Virus record (IMG/VR): IMGVR_UViG_3300036835_000176
Location: 1-56,620 of that record
DNA length: 56,620 nucleotides
Origin: a virus
Lineage: Duplodnaviria; Caudoviricetes
Direction: 5' to 3' (one strand)
This document shows, piece after piece, positions 10,677 to 53,777 of this stretch. Position numbers and translations under genes: made by a program. A model generated the notes under the pieces. It searched no databases and was not told the origin of the DNA. It saw nothing but the letters and a program-made list of their open reading frames with translations. Position 1 is the first letter of the stretch. The number at the start of each line of letters is the position of its first letter.

Positions 10677-10682
10677 AGAACT

Positions 10683-10769
10683 GCCGTCTAGGTTGGGAGT
10701 AATTAACCCAACCGAAAAGCCGTTCCCTAGCGGCCTGGCGGCGCACATTCTAGGGACCACCATAGGGAG
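10683..10769 (+). ncRNA. Three-way-junction leader RNA with loop complementary to downstream SD
   Basis: Stems GCCGTC/GGCGGC, GGTTGGG/CCCAACC, GCCG/CGGC; loop TTCCCTAG pairs with CTAGGGA (10750) and TAGGGAG (10763). Confidence 0.55.
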
Positions 10770-18330: not shown

Positions 18331-18433
18331 CCGCTACTCCTAATCCTGCGCCACCTATCAGTAATATTGTATTCCTGCTAAGCGGCGCAAAACCGGAAAT
18401 AGCCTGGATTGGTACCAACCGAACGCGCTAGGA

Positions 18434-19699
18434 CTAGCTGTGCTGCTTCAGGAGGGCGACCGCCTCAGGCTGCACGAGCAGTCCGCCAACGCGCTTGTAG
18501 AACATGAAGCCGACCTGTCCGCTCATCGCAAACAGTTCGTTCAGCCGCAGCGTCGTGATGCCCTGGCGATCAACGAAGCGGTAGCCCTTGTTGAAGTCGC
18601 CAACGGCCATCGTGACCTTCGTCGCGGTCACGGCGCTGTCCATGTCGGTAGCTTCCTTGTAGGGCTTGCCCAGAATGGTTGGCTCCCATCCCGCCTGCAT
18701 GCCCGCCATGCCCCACGCCTGCAGGAGCGGACGGCCATTGGCCACGTCCGTGATCTCGCGCAGGTACTCCAGCACGGCCTGATTCAACAGCCACACGCAA
18801 TTCGGGCTGTTGCGATAGGCGGGCTTGAGCTTCATCAGCGCGCCCACGACATCGGCGTAGACAATCGCCGTCGCGCCCGCCGTGGTCTTGATGTTGCCGC
18901 TCGGCACATCCGCCACGAAACCGGACATCTGGCCAACGCCAGTACCGGACACGAAGCCGGTACCCTCAGTGACGCCGAACTGCTCCGCCACGTCCGCCGC
19001 GATGTCGGATTCCAGGTCAAAGTATTCGTCGTCAAGCTGCTGACGCGTGAACTGGACTTCCGCGTACATCTCGGATGTCGGGATGGTGCGGTTGCCGTAC
19101 GTCTGGCCGGTGGTCTCCGTGCGGGTGCCAGCTTCGGCGATCCACTGCGCGGCCAGCGTGGTCTTGCGGTAGCGAATCTCGACCGCGTTGGCGTTGGTCG
19201 GCTGCACACGGGCCACGTCACGAACGGGCGTGTACAGGATGCTGTCCTTGATGACCTCGTTCTGCAGGATTTCCGGCAGAACGAAGTAGCCGCCAAGCGT
19301 GTCATCGATGGTGCTGAACGCCTTGCGCTCGCCACCGCCAAGCTCAATGGCCTTGGCCTGCAACGCCTGAACGTCTTCCTCACCCGCGCGCATCGGCGCG
19401 AGAATGGCGCGCTGCTCGCTGGACATCTTGAGCAGGCCATGCTTGAGGAAGGCTTTGAACGCATCGTTGCGCGCCGCCTTCGCCTCGGCCTCTTCATCAC
19501 TCTTTGGCTCGGCCTGCGCGGGGCGCTTCGCCCTCGCCTCAAGCTCGTTCCAGTCGGCGTTGATCTTCTTGATCGCCGCCTCAGTTTCGCCAAGACGTGT
19601 GTCGTACGCCTTGGCCTCTTCCTGACCTTGCTTCACGCGCTCCAGCAACTCATGCTGGAGTTCCAAAATCTTCTCAGCCTCTTCAACGGAAAGGGCCAT
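18434..19699 (-). CDS. Major capsid protein, HK97 fold with N-terminal scaffold domain
   Basis: GGYFVLPE, WIAE, FVSGTG, ILGKP, GDF..Y..VDR, KRVGG. Confidence 0.95.
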   Translation of the reverse strand: MALSVEEAEKILELQHELLERVKQGQEEAKAYDTRLGETEAAIKKINADWNELEARAKRPAQAEPKSDEEAEAKAARNDAFKAFLKHGLLKMSSEQRAILAPMRAGEEDVQALQAKAIELGGGERKAFSTIDDTLGGYFVLPEILQNEVIKDSILYTPVRDVARVQPTNANAVEIRYRKTTLAAQWIAEAGTRTETTGQTYGNRTIPTSEMYAEVQFTRQQLDDEYFDLESDIAADVAEQFGVTEGTGFVSGTGVGQMSGFVADVPSGNIKTTAGATAIVYADVVGALMKLKPAYRNSPNCVWLLNQAVLEYLREITDVANGRPLLQAWGMAGMQAGWEPTILGKPYKEATDMDSAVTATKVTMAVGDFNKGYRFVDRQGITTLRLNELFAMSGQVGFMFYKRVGGLLVQPEAVALLKQHS

Positions 19700-23348: not shown

Positions 23349-24683
23349 TTAGTAGTCCACGAAGCCCCATTGCTGGCCCGCGCCGTCAATCATCAGGTCA
23401 GTCAGCAGCCACACGAGCGCGTCCATGCGGTCAGGGCTGCTATCGCCTGGCGTCCACTGGCACATCTGATCTTCCAGCGCAGGAAACGCGCCGACGTGAT
23501 GTACCCTGGACTGTTCGTAGAGCGCGGCGACCGGCTCAGCGCGCGTCAACTTGCCTCGTGAGGCATGGACGGCGCGATAGGGTATCGTGGATTCAATCGT
23601 GCGTAAGGTATGCTCGACCATTTCGCCGCCATTATTCGTCTCGGCGACGATGCGATCAGCATGGTACTTGTGATAGCCCGTGACAGCAGCGCGCGCCCAG
23701 CCATCCGGTGACGCCTTCAGGCTTGCGTCTTCCAGGATGTAGCCGTGGCCGTCTTTGCCTAACGCGCCGACAATCACGCCGGTCTCGTCGGAATCTTCGC
23801 TGTGTGTCACGGCAGGGTCTATGGCGACGACAACGCGGCTGAAGGCGTCTGGCGGCTTCGTGGTGCGCGACGCTTCGATCTGGTCTCGCTTCCACAGCGC
23901 GCCCGGATTGTCGTCTAGGATTTCAGCGTCTAATTCCTGGCGCCCTAAGCGCGTCCCCGCATACTTCGCGGTGATTTGCTTCATGAAGGCGGGCGCAAGG
24001 TTCGCCGCGTTGTCATAGGTGCGACCGCGCGTCACATGGGACGTTGACGCCGCCACCAGGTCGCGCACGATCTTGGTTGGCCGTGGCGTGGTCGTTACAA
24101 CGGCGCGCGGATCGCTGCCAGCGCGTAGCGTGAACATGAGCATGTCCCAGGCTTCCTGGGCGTACTTCCATGCCGCCAGCTCATCACACCATGCGCCGTC
24201 AACGTTCGGGCCGCGTAACTGGTCGGGTTCCTCTGCGCTATAGGTCGTCGCGGTCGCACCGTTGGGCCATGTGAGCCTGCGCTTGGATGGCTCGTACTCT
24301 GGACGGAACCACGGTGGCGAGATACGCAGGATGCCGGACTCGCCCTCGATCATCACGTCACGTACGTCAGCAGCGGTCGGCGCCACAAGTGCAAGGCTGC
24401 CACATTGGCCGCTCTCGACTTGCGCGCGCACCCATTCACTTCCCGTGCGCGTCTTTCCAAAGCCTCGACCAGCGAGCAGGAGCCACACGAGCCAGTCACC
24501 TTCGGGTGTGAGTTGATTGTCTCGCGCCCAAAACGACCAGCGGTAGCGATGCTCAACCTTCTGCGCTGGCGTCAGGCTTTCCCAATACCTCTGGCGTAGC
24601 TGTTGCGGCAAGGAGTGAATAGAAACGCGCGTCGGCCTCGGCGGCAAGTCCGTTGATGTCGAGTTGACCTGAGAGCTTGACAT
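23349..24683 (-). CDS. terL: Terminase large subunit (start uncertain)
   Basis: AGRGFGKT Walker A, WCDE Walker B, TTTP, VAIDP, SPDRMDA nuclease motifs. Confidence 0.95.
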   Translation of the reverse strand: MSSSQVNSTSTDLPPRPTRVSIHSLPQQLRQRYWESLTPAQKVEHRYRWSFWARDNQLTPEGDWLVWLLLAGRGFGKTRTGSEWVRAQVESGQCGSLALVAPTAADVRDVMIEGESGILRISPPWFRPEYEPSKRRLTWPNGATATTYSAEEPDQLRGPNVDGAWCDELAAWKYAQEAWDMLMFTLRAGSDPRAVVTTTPRPTKIVRDLVAASTSHVTRGRTYDNAANLAPAFMKQITAKYAGTRLGRQELDAEILDDNPGALWKRDQIEASRTTKPPDAFSRVVVAIDPAVTHSEDSDETGVIVGALGKDGHGYILEDASLKASPDGWARAAVTGYHKYHADRIVAETNNGGEMVEHTLRTIESTIPYRAVHASRGKLTRAEPVAALYEQSRVHHVGAFPALEDQMCQWTPGDSSPDRMDALVWLLTDLMIDGAGQQWGFVDY

Positions 24684-28434: not shown

Positions 28435-28464
28435 GATCTAGCGGAACTTAGATCGTGATATGAT
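28435..28464 (+). promoter_or_regulatory. Inverted repeat GATCTA-N8-TAGATC next to an extended -10 (TGATATGAT)
   Basis: Seen directly upstream of the tyrosine recombinase. Confidence 0.4.
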
Positions 28465-28501
28465 CGGGCTATTTTCGGGCCATATGAAAGGGGATTTTGT
28501 G

Positions 28502-29494
28502 ATGTCAGGGAACGAGATACGCGACGTGGAGATCATTGGGTATCACTCGTTGCCGTGGGAGGTTGACGCGCTACGCGAGTGGATGGCGTCGCTTCGTGGG
28601 CGCTCTGGCTCGCAGAAGACTTTGCGCGGCTATTGGGATACGTTTACCGACTTCGCGCGCACGCTCGCATCTGCGGGCTTCCGCCTTGATGACGATACGC
28701 AGGACGTGGCGCGCGTCGCGCGGGAATGGTCGGAGCGATGGGGCAAGGGCAAGCCACCATCTAAAGCGACCATCGCGCTACGCCTTACGGTTGTCAGCAG
28801 CTTCTATCGCTTCGCCCGGAAGCGGACGAAGTTCGACAAGGCCAACCCGATTGACTTGCTTGACCGGCCCAACGTGGCAGGATACGAGAAGGCGCGCCCA
28901 CTGCCATTCGGAACCGTGAGCGCCGCGCTCGCAAAGATTGACCGCTCAACGCCACAAGGCGCGCGTGACTACGCCTTGCTCTTGCTCGGCTTGCGTACCG
29001 GCAAGCGCAAGTCAGAACTGGCCGCGCTGTCGTGGAGCGATCTGGCATTAGAGGGCGCTATCATCACCGTGACATGGCCGCGTCTGAAAGGTGACAAGAG
29101 CGCATGGACGGAATTGAGCGGCGAAGTATCTGACGCGCTCTTGGCGTGGCTGGAGATGGCCTATGGTCACATCAGCCCGAATGCGATCATTGCGCCGGAC
29201 GCGCCGGTGTGGATCTCATTCGCCCGCAGTCTGCCCAAGGGGCGTATCGAGCGTATGACGCCATCTGCTATCGCCTATATCTGCCAGAAACGGCTCGGTA
29301 CGTCGCGCGTTCACCGTTTGCGCCACACCTACGCGCGTGACTTACTCGCATCCGGCGCATCACCAACAGAGATACAGGCGCTCTTGGGGCATTCCAGCCT
29401 GGTCACGACAGACCGCTATCTGCCACACCTGACGCCAACGCGCGACCCATACGCTGTGAAGATTGCCGCGCTCTATGCTGAGAAGGGCGACTAG
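28502..29494 (+). CDS. Tyrosine recombinase (XerC/D-like)
   Basis: RDYALL..TGKRKSEL, KGDK, HRLRHTYA, LLGHSS..TT.RY. Confidence 0.92.
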   Translation: MSGNEIRDVEIIGYHSLPWEVDALREWMASLRGRSGSQKTLRGYWDTFTDFARTLASAGFRLDDDTQDVARVAREWSERWGKGKPPSKATIALRLTVVSSFYRFARKRTKFDKANPIDLLDRPNVAGYEKARPLPFGTVSAALAKIDRSTPQGARDYALLLLGLRTGKRKSELAALSWSDLALEGAIITVTWPRLKGDKSAWTELSGEVSDALLAWLEMAYGHISPNAIIAPDAPVWISFARSLPKGRIERMTPSAIAYICQKRLGTSRVHRLRHTYARDLLASGASPTEIQALLGHSSLVTTDRYLPHLTPTRDPYAVKIAALYAEKGD

Positions 29495-38774: not shown

Positions 38775-40631
38775 TCACCCTACCGCTTCACGCGCGACTT
38801 GCGAGAGACTGAACGCCTCGGCGAAGTCTGGCCGCAACCGTATCGTCCCTAACTCGCATGACGGCGGAAGGGTGCTGGCGTCAATCCAGCGATTGTAGTA
38901 TCCCTTGCTCGCGCGCAGGATCAGCGGCATACCCTTCGCTTCGATCATCCGCGCCGCTATCGCTTGCCGTTCCGCGAGCGTCAACTCATCGCGCCAGAGC
39001 GTTACCGCATCGTGAATGATACTGGCTGCGTTCATGAGCCGCGTCACGTGCTGCTCGACCGTCTGCCCCGCGCCCTCTAGCCGTGAAATCTCTTTGCTAA
39101 TGGCATCGTGGCGCCGATCAAACTCGTCGCGCTCGATCTCCCCCAACGCATAGAGATGGTTGTTCGCCTCGCGCCGGCGGTGCGCCTTCGCCAGCTCGCG
39201 CATCCGTTCGCGTGTATCCGCCTGCCCGTCTGGCCGCCCATCTGTATCCCCATTGCGCGCCAGGGTCACCGCCCGCGCGTGAACGGCTTGCTCCCACGCC
39301 TCCGGTAGCGCCTGCGCGCCAAGCCAGTCCAGCCACGCCGCGCGCACGTCCTCGACCCGCGCCCACTTGCCGCTCTGGCTACACTGGACGCCACGATCAG
39401 CAGCGTCGCACACATAGCGTTCGTAGATGCGCTTGACGCCATCCTTTGCCGTGTCATGGACCGTACGCCGCACGTAAAGGACGCCGCCGCATTCGGCGCA
39501 CACCACAAGCCCGCGAAACTCTGCCGTGTAGGGTTCTGGCCTGAGTCCGGCGCTATGCCCCGTCCAGCCGCGCCGCCGTCCCTCGGCGATCTGCTGTAGC
39601 GCGTGCCATTCTTCCCACGACAGCGCCGCCGCATGTGTCCCCCGGTAGGTTCGCCCCTTGCTCACGACGGTCCCATTTGGATCTCCGATGGTGAACGGGC
39701 GATAGAAGCGGTTGCGCCGGATGACGCTCACCGTCTGGCGCGTCCATACCCGCGCCTCATTGGCCTTCTTTCCGCCGCCCGGTGTGAGCGGCGCGGGCCA
39801 GTGGCCATCCCGATTCATGCGCTCGGCGATCTCGCCATCTGTCAGGCACTCGCGCATCAGCGCATAAAGACACATCAACCCTTCCCACGTCCCGCCAACG
39901 TCCGGCTCCGCGCCCGCCTGCCCTAGCGCCTTCGTCGCGGCGCGCGGGTCGGCGCCCATGCGCTCCAGCGCCGCCTTTACCGCATCCAGGTTCTTGCGAT
40001 AGCCATACGGCACGCGACAGGCGTACAGGCCCTTCATCACGCGCTCGGCTTTGCCGTCCGCTATCGCGCCGCCGCGTTTGCGGTTCTCGCCTTCGGTCAT
40101 GGAGATGATGAAACGTAGCGCCATCCAGCCTGCCGGGGTGTTGGCGTCAAACTTCTCTTGCAGCGACACGAAGCGCACTCCGGCGCGCTCTAACTCTCCC
40201 AACGCCAGCAAGGTCACGATCTCTGAGCGCGAGAACCTATCGAGTTTGTACACGGCTACGATGTCGTACTCACCTGAGAGCGCGGCGCGTAGCATTCGCA
40301 GAAAGACGGTGCGTTTGGCGAGCTTGCGATCTGTCGCGCTCTTGGCTGGCTCGTCAAAATAGTCCACGTCCCACTGCACACCATCGCGCGTCTGCGCCTG
40401 CGCTTCCTGCTCGAAGCTTGTGTGCTGCATGGGAATAGACCAGCCATCGTTTTGCATGGCCGAGCTATAGCGGCAATAGGCGGCGACGCGCAGCGGACGT
40501 TGACGCGCGATGAGCGCTTGCTCACCATCCTGTGCAAGCGCGCTCAGGACCGGGCGTTTGCTCGGCGATGTGGCGAGCGATACCAGCCGGTCTACGATTT
40601 CCTCTGGCGACTCAGATGCTCGGCGCGGCAT
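38775..40631 (-). CDS. Large serine recombinase/integrase (start uncertain)
   Basis: YCRYSS..Q, YKLDRFSR, PYGY, recombinase domain, CAECG..C..C zinc ribbon, coiled coil. Confidence 0.92.
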   Translation of the reverse strand: MPRRASESPEEIVDRLVSLATSPSKRPVLSALAQDGEQALIARQRPLRVAAYCRYSSAMQNDGWSIPMQHTSFEQEAQAQTRDGVQWDVDYFDEPAKSATDRKLAKRTVFLRMLRAALSGEYDIVAVYKLDRFSRSEIVTLLALGELERAGVRFVSLQEKFDANTPAGWMALRFIISMTEGENRKRGGAIADGKAERVMKGLYACRVPYGYRKNLDAVKAALERMGADPRAATKALGQAGAEPDVGGTWEGLMCLYALMRECLTDGEIAERMNRDGHWPAPLTPGGGKKANEARVWTRQTVSVIRRNRFYRPFTIGDPNGTVVSKGRTYRGTHAAALSWEEWHALQQIAEGRRRGWTGHSAGLRPEPYTAEFRGLVVCAECGGVLYVRRTVHDTAKDGVKRIYERYVCDAADRGVQCSQSGKWARVEDVRAAWLDWLGAQALPEAWEQAVHARAVTLARNGDTDGRPDGQADTRERMRELAKAHRRREANNHLYALGEIERDEFDRRHDAISKEISRLEGAGQTVEQHVTRLMNAASIIHDAVTLWRDELTLAERQAIAARMIEAKGMPLILRASKGYYNRWIDASTLPPSCELGTIRLRPDFAEAFSLSQVAREAVG

Positions 40632-40836
40632 AGACGGTACCCGACTTCTTGCCTGACTGCTTGCGGCGCGTGCGCTGTGGCTGTTTCGCCTGCTCTGTCC
40701 GTAGTCCTGCCTGTTCGCGCAAGGCCCGCCGCGCCGCTGCTCTGGCGAGTATCCAGAGTACCGCATCCACGTCTGGCGTGAAACGCATCTCGGCAATTGG
40801 GCTAGCCGCCTTGGTGACTTTCCTGCGTGCGCTCAT
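40612..40836 (-). CDS. Small basic hypothetical protein
   Basis: ATGA-coupled to VRR-NUC; overlaps recombinase start. Confidence 0.5.
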   Translation of the reverse strand: MSARRKVTKAASPIAEMRFTPDVDAVLWILARAAARRALREQAGLRTEQAKQPQRTRRKQSGKKSGTVYAAPSI

Positions 40837-41716: not shown

Positions 41717-42574
41717 ATGGCCAGCGCGAAACGTACTATGAAGGAGACCATTATCCCGTTTCCCGCACGACCCTCACGGAGCCGCCGGGGTGACATGAGT
41801 AGCGTCCGAAGGAACGGAACAGGGGCGCTTATGAGCAAGCAGCCAAACGAGCATACACAGCACATGGTGAATACCATGCGGTTCTTTAAGGCGCTGTACG
41901 AGCAACGCAAGGAAGAGCGCGGCGATACCTACGATAAAATCGCGGAAGCTGCGACTCTGCTAGCGCAGGGCGATGGATGGGATATCAACATTCCCAAGCC
42001 CTACGTCGCGCGCCTGTGTGGCCAGGGCGATCATTACGTGGTCGAGGCGACCGACTTCTCGTATATGCGCGCCTACTACATCCTGCGCGTGTTCGGCAAG
42101 ACGATGGGCGATCTGGAGCGCGCGATGGAACGCATCAGCGATGAGGCCGTGACAGACGAGCAGTTAGCCGTCAACGCCATACGCCATATCCGCTATCCCG
42201 AAGTGCGGCGCGCCGCGCGCAATCTCGTGGAAGACCTGGCAGGGCTGGACGCTTCGCTGCCACGCCCGCGCACAGCGCCATCCTATCTTGAGCCACTACC
42301 GGGCGCGACACAGGGCGCAAAGCCAGAGCCGCTACCAGCAGATGGCGCGCCGCCCAAGCCTGTCTCTGCTGACCCACTCGGCGATCCGTTGGGCGACATG
42401 GCGGCGCAGAAGTTCGCCGAGGCCGATCAGAGCGAAGCGGAACGCAAGGCGCAAAAGGAAGCCGAGCGCAAAGCCGAGTTAGAGCAGCGCAAGGCGGAAC
42501 TGCGCGACCGTAAGCCGTCAGATAGCGCCAGCGATGACGCGACCGGAACCGAAAGCCCAAACGGCGGCCAGTAG
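41717..42574 (+). CDS. Putative repressor (XRE-like N-terminal helices)
   Basis: RKEERGDTYDKIAE..YVARL; divergent from Cro-like gene. Confidence 0.45.
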   Translation: MASAKRTMKETIIPFPARPSRSRRGDMSSVRRNGTGALMSKQPNEHTQHMVNTMRFFKALYEQRKEERGDTYDKIAEAATLLAQGDGWDINIPKPYVARLCGQGDHYVVEATDFSYMRAYYILRVFGKTMGDLERAMERISDEAVTDEQLAVNAIRHIRYPEVRRAARNLVEDLAGLDASLPRPRTAPSYLEPLPGATQGAKPEPLPADGAPPKPVSADPLGDPLGDMAAQKFAEADQSEAERKAQKEAERKAELEQRKAELRDRKPSDSASDDATGTESPNGGQ

Positions 42575-42578
42575 CAGT

Positions 42579-42638
42579 AACGGCGCCAGCTTGATCCAGC
42601 TACGGTATCATCTTGATTCCATTCAAGCTGGCGCCGTT
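42579..42638. repeat. Perfect 16-bp inverted repeat with 28-nt spacer
   Basis: AACGGCGCCAGCTTGA / TCAAGCTGGCGCCGTT. Confidence 0.9.
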
Positions 42639-44155: not shown

Positions 44156-44437
44156 CTATTGCGACTGCCTGACCCGCCTTAAGGAATGGGCGGGTTTTTG
44201 TTTGCCTTGCGCCAGCCTCTTGGGATGCGACACTGGCGATTCATAGGTTTGGCGCAGTTCCTCGCGTAGCCGTTCCACGTCCTCTACCTTGATGTACCAA
44301 ATACGCATGTCGCGCGCTTTCAGCTTGTGTCGCGTTACCCCTGTCTCACTCATGAGGCGCGTCATTTTGTACGGTGTCAGCCCCAACTCTTCGCGCGCTT
44401 GCCCGGTCGTTATCCACTGCACTTCGGTCTTCTTCAT
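44156..44437 (-). CDS. Excisionase/MerR-like HTH protein
   Basis: WITTGQAREELGLT..WYIKVEDVERL; SD GGAAGG. Confidence 0.65.
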   Translation of the reverse strand: MKKTEVQWITTGQAREELGLTPYKMTRLMSETGVTRHKLKARDMRIWYIKVEDVERLREELRQTYESPVSHPKRLAQGKQKPAHSLRRVRQSQ

Positions 44438-44533
44438 CGTGTCACCTTCCTAATAAGCACAACCGTACCGCTACTCTATTAGACGCACACGGTGGCCATT
44501 TCGTCAAATTTCTACGAATTTGCATGAACACTC

Positions 44534-44562
44534 TTGACTTTCTGTGACCGTTCGTGTAGACT
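44534..44562 (+). promoter_or_regulatory. Sigma70-type promoter TTGACT-17-TAGACT
   Basis: Near consensus; heads the rightward early operon. Confidence 0.7.
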
Positions 44563-44618
44563 ACTCGTATGGAACGTTAGAGATTACACACATGGAACGC
44601 AAGTGGGGGGGCAGAGCG

Positions 44619-44999
44619 ATGGCGACGGCAGTAGTTGAGCAGACCCAGGTCCGGCGGTACACGGCGCGCAATGTGCAGAATGCGTTGTGGCGGCGGCAGT
44701 CGCTACGGGCGGCGTTCGAGCAGCACACCGCGTACACGGCGTATGAGGTCGCGGAAGTTCCGCATTGCCATCACGTCATCCGGGTACCGAGTCGGAACGA
44801 TGGCAAGCCAGTACGTGTGGTGTGGGATGGCGTCAAAGACGAGTTCTACTGCAACGAGCATGCGATGCACACCTGTTGCCACTCAGGAGCAGCGCTTTTG
44901 CTGTTAATGGCGCGCGGGTTGCTGCCGCACATGGACAGCAGCGAGCCGGGAGAGTTGGAAGCCAATACGCAGGTTTGGCGTCAGGCGAGCGGGAAGTAA
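44619..44999 (+). CDS. SWIM-like zinc-finger protein
   Basis: VPS..FYCNEH....CCHSGA. Confidence 0.5.
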   Translation: MATAVVEQTQVRRYTARNVQNALWRRQSLRAAFEQHTAYTAYEVAEVPHCHHVIRVPSRNDGKPVRVVWDGVKDEFYCNEHAMHTCCHSGAALLLLMARGLLPHMDSSEPGELEANTQVWRQASGK

Positions 45000-45006
45000 G
45001 GGAAGG

Positions 45007-45187
45007 CGAGCAGCCTATTGGTGAGTCTGTCAGTGAAAGCCGTGGCGGCGTCCGTAAAGCCGGGCGTGCCTAGCCAGAGCTGACCTGGGAAAGCTGTCGT
45101 AAGTACCAGGCTTGATGACGCATAGCGGCTCCGACAGGCCCATGTGGCTAGGTCATCACATTGGCAGATTCACCCATAGGTTGCTCG
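45007..45187 (+). ncRNA. Candidate structured RNA (~180 nt)
   Basis: 29-bp closing stem with 4 G-U pairs and 1 mismatch; several inner stems; possible pseudoknot. Confidence 0.55.
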
Positions 45188-45225
45188 GATGTCAAGAGTC
45201 GCCACAAGCGGGAGGAGAGACGACG

Positions 45226-45525
45226 ATGCGAACACTGGTTACTGAGCGACGTAACGGCGGCTGGCTTGCCGAGTACGTAGGGCGCGAATGCACCGCCTAT
45301 TGGGCAGAGCGCTATATCGGACGCGGTGATGCGCGAGTTCACTATTTCGCGCGGGTCGCTGGTGGCGATGTGGTCGGCTTCCTCAAGAAGATGAATCGTA
45401 GTGCGAAGCTGCTGGCAGTGCCCGATTTGGAATGGTTGCCGCCGGTTCCCGATGAACACCACAGACACGGCCCGTATGGCGCTTATTACGGGACCATTCA
45501 GCGTAGCAAAGAGATTGCGCTGTAG
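45226..45525 (+). CDS. Hypothetical protein
   Basis: SD GGAGGAG before ATG 45226. Confidence 0.6.
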   Translation: MRTLVTERRNGGWLAEYVGRECTAYWAERYIGRGDARVHYFARVAGGDVVGFLKKMNRSAKLLAVPDLEWLPPVPDEHHRHGPYGAYYGTIQRSKEIAL

Positions 45526-45556
45526 CAGCATAGCCCACAGGCGAGGAGACGACGAG

Positions 45557-46117
45557 ATGGGGCAATACGACTTGAGCGACCGCGAACTCTACGACGAGCG
45601 CGAAGATGACGATCCGCGCTTGCTCCACATTGACGCCGACGACTGGAAGGTAGCCGAGATGAGGAACGTGGAGATGGAACGCGACCAGAGTGCGAAGATT
45701 GAGACGCCCGCGCAGACAGCGATCCTAGCGTTGATTGCTGAGGCGCGGGAAATCGAGCGCATCAACGATATGAAGGCTGCGGAGGAAGAGCGGCTCAAAT
45801 TGCGCGAACAGGAGCAGCGCGCAGTGAAGGCGTTTACCAGCAAGATAGAGTCGCGCCTGCTGGAAGCGCTTGGCGAGGTCACTGCACAGGAGCGCGACAC
45901 ATGGTCTCGTCTCGTCACACTGCAATTCAGCGCGGGAAACCACGACATTAGCGCTCGCCTTCAGGACTGCTTTTACTACCTCGATGGTTCGAATGGTCGG
46001 CATACCTCATTTGAGGATGTGGCGTCACCGAGCGAGTACACGCAGGGCCTCTTGCTGGCGCTCGGCAATATCATCGCGCCTGCTGCGCCTGTACCTGACG
46101 ACGATATTCCGTTCTGA
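45557..46117 (+). CDS. Hypothetical protein ending in an SSB-type DDDIPF tail
   Basis: SD GAGGAG; C-terminus PDDDIPF. Confidence 0.65.
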   Translation: MGQYDLSDRELYDEREDDDPRLLHIDADDWKVAEMRNVEMERDQSAKIETPAQTAILALIAEAREIERINDMKAAEEERLKLREQEQRAVKAFTSKIESRLLEALGEVTAQERDTWSRLVTLQFSAGNHDISARLQDCFYYLDGSNGRHTSFEDVASPSEYTQGLLLALGNIIAPAAPVPDDDIPF

Positions 46118-46159
46118 GCCAGACACGAGCAGCGGCCACGCCGCAGGAGGGATGAGGGG

Positions 46160-46767: not shown

Positions 46768-47066
46768 GTGAGCGCTGCCGTCTCTGCGGGCGGTTCACCT
46801 ATTGGCCGAATGAGGGTCGCACGGTTCTGTGTAACGATTGCTTCTTTGGATTTCATTTCATGAAGTGCAAGACGTGCGGCCATATCTGGCGAGGCGAATT
46901 GCAGCGAGAGGGCAAGCGCCTTATGCCGGATTGTCCAGTGACAACGGTTGCTCACGCGCGCGCAAGAGGCGAGACCTACATCCCACAAGGCAAAGAGAGA
47001 GAGCGCGCCAAGCGTGATTTTTACGCCGCCCTGAGAGACGGCGACGATTTTGAGCCACAGGAGTAA
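46764..47066 (+). CDS. Cys-rich hypothetical protein
   Basis: Three CxxC pairs; GTGA coupling. Confidence 0.55.
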   Translation: MSERCRLCGRFTYWPNEGRTVLCNDCFFGFHFMKCKTCGHIWRGELQREGKRLMPDCPVTTVAHARARGETYIPQGKERERAKRDFYAALRDGDDFEPQE

Positions 47067-47638: not shown

Positions 47639-48517
47639 ATGGATAACAGCGAATGGGGAGACGTTGGGCGACGACTCGCGGAACCTTTTGACCCTGCGGA
47701 GGTTGATTGGCGCGTCCAGGGTAAGGTCAACGAGCAGACCGGCAAAGGGAGCGTTGTCGCGTACATTGACGCGCGCTCTGTGCAGGATCGGCTAGATACC
47801 GTGGTGGGCGCGGGCAACTGGTCATTTGACTGGGAGCCAGTTGTCGTCGCCAATGGTGAGGTACAGGTCGCCAAGGGAACGCTGACCATCTATGGCGTCT
47901 CGAAGTCTGACGCCGGTTCCGCCAGCAACTTCGAGCAGACGCTAGGCGCGGTTTCCCATTGCTTTAAGCGCGCCGCTGTCCACTGGGGCGTGGGACGGTA
48001 TTTGTACAACGTCTCGGCACAATGGGTAGCGGTCGAGAAGGGCGGGCGGCTCTCTGAGCAGACGTTGACGCAACTGCGCGCCAGACTGCCCAAGCCTAGC
48101 GGAGCGTCACACGAGCCACGCCAGCAGCAACGCATGGAAACCAAGACGGAAACCAAGACCACCAGCAATCAAGGCAACCATCAGGCGGCTGATGTCTTTC
48201 CCGCGCGCGAGAGTGAGCCGGAGGAAGCGCCAGCGGTAGACCCTAACTTCCTGCCGCTGGTGGGCGATGAGAACTACTGGCAGTCGCTGGTGTTTGGCGA
48301 CGGGCAAGCCGAGTTGACCGCGCTGCTACGTCGCAAGGGCTACACGCAATTGAGCGAAGTCACAGCCTATTTCAACGCGCTGACGCACTCAGAGGACTAC
48401 CGCGATCATGCTGTGGCGCAACTCGCGCAGGGCAAGGCGAAGTGGCTCACCCGCGCGATACAGAAGGCGGCGCTAGACGACCTGAATAAGCGCAAAGACG
48501 TGAAGCAACCGGCGTAG
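47639..48517 (+). CDS. Rad52/Rad22-family (Sak-like) single-strand annealing protein
   Basis: LAEPF..VDWRV..AYIDARSVQDRLD.VVG..NW..S..FKRAAV.WGVGRYLY. Confidence 0.88.
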   Translation: MDNSEWGDVGRRLAEPFDPAEVDWRVQGKVNEQTGKGSVVAYIDARSVQDRLDTVVGAGNWSFDWEPVVVANGEVQVAKGTLTIYGVSKSDAGSASNFEQTLGAVSHCFKRAAVHWGVGRYLYNVSAQWVAVEKGGRLSEQTLTQLRARLPKPSGASHEPRQQQRMETKTETKTTSNQGNHQAADVFPARESEPEEAPAVDPNFLPLVGDENYWQSLVFGDGQAELTALLRRKGYTQLSEVTAYFNALTHSEDYRDHAVAQLAQGKAKWLTRAIQKAALDDLNKRKDVKQPA

Positions 48518-52932: not shown

Positions 52933-53078
52933 GAGCGGGCGTCCGTCGTACTTGCAATACGACGAGCGCCCTGACCGATTCACTGGTGTTGGCAGTGCAG
53001 CGGCTATACCTTAGTGTACCACGATACCGAGCCAATAGCTGACGTTCGCCAACGCCTCTCAAGGAGGCGTTTTGTGTT
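52933..53078 (+). ncRNA. Structured leader/attenuator, copy 1
   Basis: Hairpin with CTTGCAA loop, CGCCCTGACCGA core, second hairpin, AGTGTAC, then terminator/SD-sequestering hairpin 53051..53071. Confidence 0.6.
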
Positions 53079-53622
53079 GGATGATGTAGAGACCTTTCGC
53101 AAGTGTAAGACATGCGGCGAAGTGAAGCCTATCACTGAATATTCGCGCGGCAAGCCGTTTGCTGGCGGTAGGCGCCCGAACTGCAAAAAGTGTCTAGCGC
53201 GCTATGAGCAGGAAAACAAGGATAGGTGGCGGCGTAATCCCCATAAAGGGAAGCAGCACCGGACACAGATGCAACGTCGGTTTAGCCACGTGCGCAGGTA
53301 TTTCCGCCTATCTCGTGAAGAATATCTGGAAATGATCGAACGACAGGGGAACCGGTGTGCGATCTGCGGTGCGCCACCACCGGAAGGTAAATTTCTAGAC
53401 GTAGACCACGATCACGCCACCGGGCGCATAAGGGCTTTGTTGTGCGGTAGGTGCAACACATGTCTAGGATGGGCAAACGACAATCCGCAGGTTCTAAGGG
53501 CGGCTGCGGATTACCTTGAGGCGCACGCTAGTAATATCAGTCCGGTGCTGGCCCATGAACCGCACAGCACTCTCTGGGGGCTGCGTTGGTGTGGTATGCT
53601 ATCAACGCCTGCCAACGTGTAG
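53074..53622 (+). CDS. Endonuclease VII-family homing endonuclease
   Basis: CKTC..CKKC; Q.NRCAICG..VDHDHATGRIRALLCGRCN..LG...DN..AADYL; SD AAGGAGG before GTG 53074. Confidence 0.9.
   Translation: MLDDVETFRKCKTCGEVKPITEYSRGKPFAGGRRPNCKKCLARYEQENKDRWRRNPHKGKQHRTQMQRRFSHVRRYFRLSREEYLEMIERQGNRCAICGAPPPEGKFLDVDHDHATGRIRALLCGRCNTCLGWANDNPQVLRAAADYLEAHASNISPVLAHEPHSTLWGLRWCGMLSTPANV
53592..53600 (+). promoter_or_regulatory. Extended -10 promoter TGGTATGCT
   Basis: Precedes leader copy 2. Confidence 0.5.
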
Positions 53623-53629
53623 GTTGGTT

Positions 53630-53777
53630 GTGCGGACGGACGGCCTGCTGGTAACAGGACGCCCGCCCTGACCGAGGCACGCCGTAAACATGCCCCGGCT
53701 GCGAGCCAGTGTACTACACACCGGCAAGCAAAGCGTGTATGCGGCGTGTCTCTTTACTGAGGCGCGCCGCTTTTTTG
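53630..53777 (+). ncRNA. Structured leader/attenuator, copy 2
   Basis: Hairpin with CTGGTAA loop, CGCCCTGACCGA core, second hairpin, AGTGTAC, then terminator. Confidence 0.6.

Follow-up and report, generated by a model that had tools for sequence, protein, structure and literature searches.

The locus examined here raises the question of whether a stretch of about 180 nucleotides near the start of a phage early operon (45007-45187, plus strand) is a structured RNA, and what part such an element might play in the life of the phage. The original prediction, made from the sequence, had described a long stem with further helices, a pseudoknot and mutually exclusive pairings inside it, and had suggested four functions: an RNA released by RNase III, an antitermination element, a protein decoy or a ribozyme. 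The window that we analysed is an entire IMG/VR record of 56,620 bases, estimated to be ~70% complete, and the phage is temperate, tailed, uncultured and from soil.

Genes that could be named in the record include a large terminase (23349-24683, minus strand), a Rad52-family recombinase (47639-48517) and an endonuclease VII (53014-53622); a tyrosine integrase (28460-29494, plus strand) and a large serine recombinase (38775-40796, minus strand) are both found in this one record. A Pfam scan of 61 further open reading frames (ORFs) added portal, capsid, prohead protease, tail, HNH, PD-(D/E)XK, DnaC-like and HTH families, and it returned no reverse transcriptase, TROVE/Ro, IS110 or other usual partner enzyme of dedicated RNAs. 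At E <= 1e-10 we found 371 homologues of the Rad52 protein, and among the best 120 of these the organism-named ones come from Ktedonobacterales MAGs in nearly all cases, with one from Nitrospira. Species-representative genomes yielded 13 Rad52 loci (five in Ktedonobacterales, four in uncultured Chloroflexia, one in Proteobacteria and the remaining three distant), and identity to the phage protein across the ten non-distant loci was 56-73%. Because the relatives of Rad52 are mostly Ktedonobacterales, the host is probably a member of the Ktedonobacteria, as judged from this one gene.

The stretch is held by a single sequencing run, a DNA run from a soil metagenome that is its probable source, and no RNA run containing it is listed among the sequencing runs. 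Logan contigs, a second assembly of the probable source run, match 44440-45887 with 0 differences; they derive from the same sample and are not independent, but the agreement means that the repeat described below is not an artefact of one assembler.

The closing helix and the segment it encloses

The element is bounded by a helix, P1, formed by a 5′ arm at 45007-45035 and a 3′ arm at 45159-45187, both on the plus strand; its pair list has an ensemble probability of 0.98, and the helix survives when the fold is computed in a 301-nt context. The pairing is as had been claimed: the 29 positions comprise 24 Watson-Crick pairs, four G-U pairs (45013-45181, 45025-45169, 45030-45164 and 45033-45161) and one mismatch (T45019/C45175), the bases directly outside and inside are non-pairing, and the duplex energy is -46.8 kcal/mol. 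We scanned all ungapped 29-position helices with a span of at most 460 nt on both strands of the 56.6-kb record and found P1 to be the sole helix with 28 of 29 positions paired; among ten dinucleotide shuffles, none reached 27. The closing helix is real and highly non-random. The runner-up in the scan lies on the minus strand at 18333-18403 (27/29 paired, 13-nt loop), just downstream of a 421-aa minus-strand ORF (18434-19699), and might serve a strongly expressed structural gene as its terminator or as a hairpin that stabilises its mRNA.

The complete 181-nt element folds on the plus strand at -92.7 kcal/mol, compared with -63.8 +/- 4.45 for shuffled sequences (z -6.49; 0/200 shuffles as good), and on the minus strand at -73.7 (z -3.56). 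The plus strand, which is also that of both flanking genes, is thus the more stable by 19 kcal/mol. On this strand the wobble positions of P1 comprise four G-U and no A-C appositions, a distribution expected in 1 in 16 cases under random orientation. Together, the wobbles, the energy bias and the strand of the neighbouring genes lean slightly towards the selection on plus-strand RNA that the original prediction had read from the G-U pairs. A sliding-window fold of the whole record was uninformative on the element because its 20-nt step cuts the stem.

The enclosed interior of 123 nt (45036-45158, plus strand) folds at chance level. Taken alone it reaches -46.4, compared with -44.4 +/- 3.8 for its shuffles (z -0.52; 51/200 as good), and its minus strand gives z -0.27; because the interior folds no better than shuffled sequence, the signal of the whole fold arises from the closing helix. 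Inner folds differ between the MFE and centroid structures, and a single inner helix stands firm across the ensemble, a small plus-strand hairpin at 45050-45065 (GUCCG-UAAAGC-CGGGC), present in both structures with a probability of 0.97. An 8-bp helix of the plus strand, CCTAGCCA/TGGCTAGG (45069-45076/45145-45152), has an ensemble probability of 0.57, a plus-strand hairpin at 45039-45049 has 0.51, and the CCTGG/CCAGG helix has 0.38.

The inner complementarities that had been pointed out are all present in the sequence, but the structured interior proposed from them did not hold up: the ensemble probability of the GAGCTG/CGGCTC helix is about 0, and a structure built from the proposed helices has an energy of -82.8, compared with -92.7 for the MFE structure, in which the inner part is paired differently. 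The putative pseudoknot corresponds to a 6-bp loop-to-strand match between CTGTCG (45094-45099) and CGACAG (45132-45137) that does occur in the sequence; by our own count of possible pairs, however, a segment of 123 nt would contain matches of 6-8 nt about as often by chance. The same applies to the mutually exclusive pairings, the sequences of which are present as matches of 7-8 nt. The listed short inner complementarities added nothing measurable, and the element is better called a long stem around an unremarkable interior than a ~180-nt structured RNA.

Setting within the rightward operon

The operon that holds the element diverges from a leftward HTH_17-like gene (44156-44437, minus strand; Pfam E 0.0027, below cut-off). 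Between that gene and the element, a consensus scan placed promoter-like sequence only at 44534-44562 on the plus strand (TTGACT-17-TAGACT, in the divergent region), and with one site found for 0.7 expected this carries little weight when taken alone. The first gene of the rightward operon, ORF126 (44619-44999 in the ORF list, plus strand), is without a Pfam or PHROG family at threshold. Its sole homologue, P0004 (69% identity), gives an alignment that begins at the start of ORF126, which fixes that start. The Cys/His positions common to the two proteins (C50, H52, C78, H84, C86 and H88) suggest a small zinc-binding domain; an AlphaFold model of ORF126 had a pLDDT of 45.8 and was too poor for use.

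The 227-nt gap in which the element lies (45000-45225, plus strand) is non-coding, with stops in all six frames. Its GC content is flat by codon position (0.55-0.61), and the GC3-over-GC2 signature of the three flanking genes (GC3 0.62-0.75, GC2 0.39-0.47) is absent from it. Without the 181-nt element the spacer would measure 46 nt, compared with 31 nt between the next two genes; with it, the gap is among the longer ones of the operon. The downstream gene, ORF99 (45226-45525, plus strand), begins with an ATG at 45226 preceded by GGGAGGAGAG, and its ribosome-binding site (45210-45219) is unpaired in the 301-nt fold. P0002, the sole homologue of ORF99 (68% identity), aligns from the 45226 start (a start picked by the gene caller). 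Translation of this ORF from an upstream start at 45112, against which the original prediction had set its own reading, is unlikely, because stops interrupt all six frames of the gap and its GC content lacks a signature by codon position; the GGGAGGAGAG sequence before 45226 and the extent of the P0002 alignment speak for the downstream start as well.

ORF186 follows at 45557, preceded by a site similar to GGGAGGAGAG, and has three homologues (90%, its cluster mate, and 52%) from billions of proteins. A 3145-nt contig from the same run matches the window only at 45202-45228, 45523-45560 and 46103-46120, around successive ribosome-binding sites and gene junctions; it differs between these stretches, and upstream of 45202 it is unlike the element. 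The pattern suggests a mosaic relative in which sequences at the gene boundaries have been conserved.

Known RNA classes and the search for relatives

Comparison with Rfam, which had been proposed as a check, brought no family to threshold for the element. Rfam 15 at the gathering threshold over the whole window placed nothing in or near the element, and a permissive search (E <= 10) of 1401 and 236 bases returned nothing credible. The best sub-threshold matches were WT1-AS_5 (11.6 bits), which is a fragment of a lncRNA, and MIR807 (25 bits, with a cut-off of 113); we rejected the latter, a plant miRNA precursor, as an identity for the element, its score merely reflecting a long hairpin. ARAGORN reported 0 tRNA or tmRNA genes, neither DicF nor any other sRNA family in Rfam matched the element, and with all Rfam families below threshold the suggestion of a ribozyme goes unsupported. 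The only Rfam family in the record is the int-alpA RNA (RF02996) at 10681-10755 on the plus strand (40.9 bits, gathering threshold 35.8).

The module formed by ORF126, ORF99 and ORF186 is rare, with 1, 1 and 3 protein homologues, respectively, in billions of sequences; the proteins P0002, P0004, P0005, P0008 and P0006 are on metagenome contigs of 1083-11641 nt. Zero matches were returned by blastn with 1.4 kb against 50,697 phage records and by tblastn with ORF126 and ORF99 against phages. Related loci were likewise absent from viral contigs searched with ORF126, ORF99, Rad52 and ORF456, from metagenome contigs searched with an ORF126 alignment, and from viral and genome contigs searched with an ORF186 alignment. 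Loci reached through a Rad52 alignment (13 genome, 80 viral and 80 metagenome loci) held neither the element nor any of ten neighbouring ORFs. Two exact 15-nt probes found 22 and 23 loci in IMG/VR, which we dismissed as chance, the alignment being confined to the probe and the partner arm being absent.

We also searched a host-class set of 169 genomes around one Ktedonobacterales genome. Profiles of ORF99 and ORF186 matched 0/169 of these genomes each; the ORF126 profile matched four of the 169 at E 0.002-0.01, two of them with internal stops, and these were taken as chance. The DNA of the element gave chance-level matches of at most ~48 nt in the same set (best per-genome E 0.0018) and 0 at E <= 1e-4 among 401 genomes sampled from the phylum. 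A single-sequence covariance model matched 10 of 151 genomes at E <= 1, with a best score of 35.3 bits and one match in G076, a genome marked as unpublished. These matches were rejected as homologues because they fall on both strands and skip the interior, and because the element's own minus strand scores 38.3 bits against the model; they are generic long hairpins.

We also looked for similar stems in the early regions of the closest relatives that carry Rad52 (21 loci, 163,637 bases). Only two helices reach 26/29 there and neither is comparable to P1; long stems are therefore not recurrent in such operons. One of the two belongs to a perfect 47-bp inverted repeat around 78 nt (L152:1764-1935; z -15.6). 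On its metagenome contig this repeat directly follows the Rad52 gene and falls within an ORF of 172 aa, and it is a palindrome of the DNA or else arose in assembly.

Candidate roles of the element

Of the four functions suggested at the outset, only a connection with RNase III gained support. The idealised substrate of E. coli RNase III is described as a helix of 22 bp, or two helical turns (PMC3867540), a length that P1 exceeds with 28/29 positions paired and one central mismatch. An RNase III domain (PF14622) scores above the Pfam cut-off in 5/5 Ktedonobacterales and Chloroflexia genomes, the clade to which Rad52 points as host. The element lies in a non-coding gap flanked by two plus-strand genes, and neither a promoter-like nor a terminator-like site is predicted next to it. 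Because the helix is a nearly perfect 29-position duplex of the sense strand, a textbook kind of RNase III substrate, because its wobbles are all G-U and because RNase III genes occur in the presumed host clade, we favour the reading that the element is an RNase III-type processing duplex in the early polycistronic transcript of a temperate phage, tentatively and at rather less than an even chance. On this structural ground the element probably most resembles an intercistronic RNase III signal, not a new class, an assignment that we regard as provisional. Several points weigh against the RNase III reading: the enclosed 123 nt are left unexplained by it, the strand bias comes from only four positions, no homologue in which the stem might be conserved turned up in the collections searched, and long stems do not recur in the early regions of relatives. 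In addition, the antideterminant rules established for E. coli may not be transferable to the presumed host.

If the element is processed by RNase III, the early rightward transcript would span the gap between ORF126 and ORF99 as one RNA, and as polymerase passed the gap the 29-nt arms would pair to form a near-perfect duplex enclosing 123 nt. Host RNase III, a double-strand-specific endoribonuclease, would then cut this duplex and separate the first gene from the rest of the polycistronic RNA, such that the stability and yield of the two parts would be uncoupled. The cut would also free the enclosed segment together with a stub of the stem, an RNA of ~125-150 nt, with or without a function of its own. 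An RNase III site at this position would give an initial view of how phages of Ktedonobacteria are organised at the post-transcriptional level, which would be useful and not surprising, and an enclosed RNA that proved stable and functional would matter more; in titles and the openings of abstracts, we found no publication on phage RNA biology in Ktedonobacteria.

Three known systems invite comparison. Phage RNase III sites such as those of T7 take the form of compact hairpins, in which an internal loop often restricts the cut to a single nick, and rRNA processing stalks are long duplexes of flanking sequences from which an RNase III cut excises a segment. The element is like the stalks in that flanking sequences form a duplex around a segment within a longer transcript; it differs from them in that the segment measures 123 nt, has no demonstrable fold or conservation and is neither rRNA nor a known stable RNA. 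In the account of RNase III substrates that we drew on, which counts rRNA precursors among them, the early mRNA precursor of T7 carries five processing signals, and the element shares with these an intercistronic double helix of the sense strand, longer than two turns, in an early polycistronic transcript (PMC3867540). It departs from them in being a nearly perfect helix that encloses 123 nt and bears no sequence relation to the T7 sites, and cleavage here is putative. DicF, an sRNA of the dicBF operon of the Qin prophage, is described as being freed from a polycistronic RNA by RNase III (in a 190-nt form) and RNase E, and as having a known antisense seed and targets (PMC10448788). The likeness to DicF lies in the setting, where non-coding sequence separates genes of a prophage operon that has a divergent repressor (PMC10448788); unlike DicF, the element has no above-chance target complementarity in the phage, and it has no Rfam match to that family.

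The main rival to the RNase III reading is set at the level of DNA, where the element would be a small mobile insertion of 181 bp with imperfect 29-bp terminal inverted repeats, similar to a MITE or MPME, or else a pair of inverted protein-binding sites, in either case a passive passenger of the intergenic spacer; we consider this unlikely. It would suit the sharp borders of the element and an interior that folds at chance level, and removal of the element would leave a spacer close in length to that between the next two genes. As DNA the 29-bp arms are Watson-Crick paired at 24/29 positions. Genomes of the presumed host class contain high-copy elements of ~150-166 nt with long terminal inverted repeats (G094 and G124), and small mobile elements with inverted repeats occur in phages, as exemplified by MPME1 of 439 bp (PMC3029335). 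Yet no direct repeat of the kind left by target-site duplication borders the element, the flanks of which are AAGGGAAGG and GATGTCAAG; as MPMEs are also described as lacking a classical target duplication (PMC3029335), its absence does not argue against every mobile element. Further copies did not turn up in the samples searched. The record holds one; the genome searches gave 0/401 for the phylum at E <= 1e-4 and chance matches only in the 169 genomes of the class, among which the true host may be unsampled; contigs of the source run, which may hide rare variants, show no second copy at 80% likeness and a flat depth of 9.33 over 44953-45180; and the 22 and 23 IMG/VR loci of the 15-nt probes are chance only. 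All four wobble positions, moreover, favour the RNA strand. The element thus agrees with MITEs and MPMEs in size class (150-440 bp), terminal inverted repeats and intergenic position (PMC3029335), and such families do occur in the presumed host class; it differs from them in being single-copy, in lacking a target duplication and found relatives, and in having only RNA-compatible wobble changes. Two MITE-like families were seen in the host class: G094, with elements of 150-166 nt (L047:146-311, L039:260-425 and L049:320-480) and 97 BLAST matches, and G124 (L038:1501-1652), with 68 BLAST matches. Their terminal inverted repeats are ~48 nt long, many of the matches lie at contig ends, and their sequence is unrelated to the phage element.

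One may also postulate that the element has no function and is what remains of an inverted duplication, or a neutral hairpin that the spacer tolerates. A single occurrence without found homologues, an interior at chance level and the rarity of the three-gene module itself (1, 1 and 3 protein homologues) would all be in keeping with this. We nevertheless hold it to be improbable, given that phage genomes are compact and the gap is among the longer ones of its operon, that four of the five changes in the stem still pair as RNA, and that the energy of the element is extreme for the genome. A further alternative is a trans-acting structured RNA of a new class (a protein decoy, an anti-defence RNA or a ribozyme), with the stem as its closing helix or release signal. 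A long terminal stem around a branched interior is how stable RNAs leave their precursors, rRNA processing stalks being an example, and the layout of the element resembles this; the hairpin at 45050-45065 and the 8-bp helix at 45069-45076/45145-45152 are fairly well predicted, and a position in the early operon suits a takeover function. The stem would then release an undescribed phage RNA of ~125-150 nt early in infection of Ktedonobacteria. This RNA would act in trans, for example by serving as a decoy to an RNA-binding protein or a defence protein of the host, and its interior would be kept in shape by tertiary or protein contacts to which energy models are blind. We regard this as distinctly unlikely: the interior is as stable as shuffled sequence and one of the proposed helices has a probability near zero, Rfam scores are below thresholds and no tRNA or tmRNA is present, exact complementarity to other parts of the phage extends to no more than 13 nt, which is about chance, the Pfam scan of 61 further ORFs found no partner enzyme of RNA-guided or RNA-templated systems, and homologues are absent from all collections searched.

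The element could finally act in cis as a transcription signal in the nascent RNA, whether as a nutR- or putR-like antitermination site, a pause site or a factor-dependent terminator. In lambdoid phages, nutR and putR follow the first early gene. The element is similarly placed: its operon is divergent from an HTH gene, the first gene of that operon precedes it, and the promoter-like site is ~440 nt away. This shared position is the extent of its likeness to the put sites of HK022 and the nut sites of lambda; the predicted fold does not show the two-hairpin architecture of put, no U-run stands behind the stem, and no N- or Q-like protein was recognised. Terminator-like sites of the plus strand are predicted only further downstream, weak ones at 47004 and 53051 and the first strong one at 53741, so that none falls within the next 1.8 kb, a prediction that covers intrinsic terminators only, Rho-dependent ones being unpredictable. 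With no terminator-like site near the element on that strand, the earlier suggestion of antitermination finds no backing, and we consider a cis-acting transcription signal very unlikely. Elsewhere in the record, an inverted repeat is found at 42579-42638, directly behind a plus-strand ORF (41717-42574) and before ORF456; its 16-bp arms match perfectly and are 28 nt apart.
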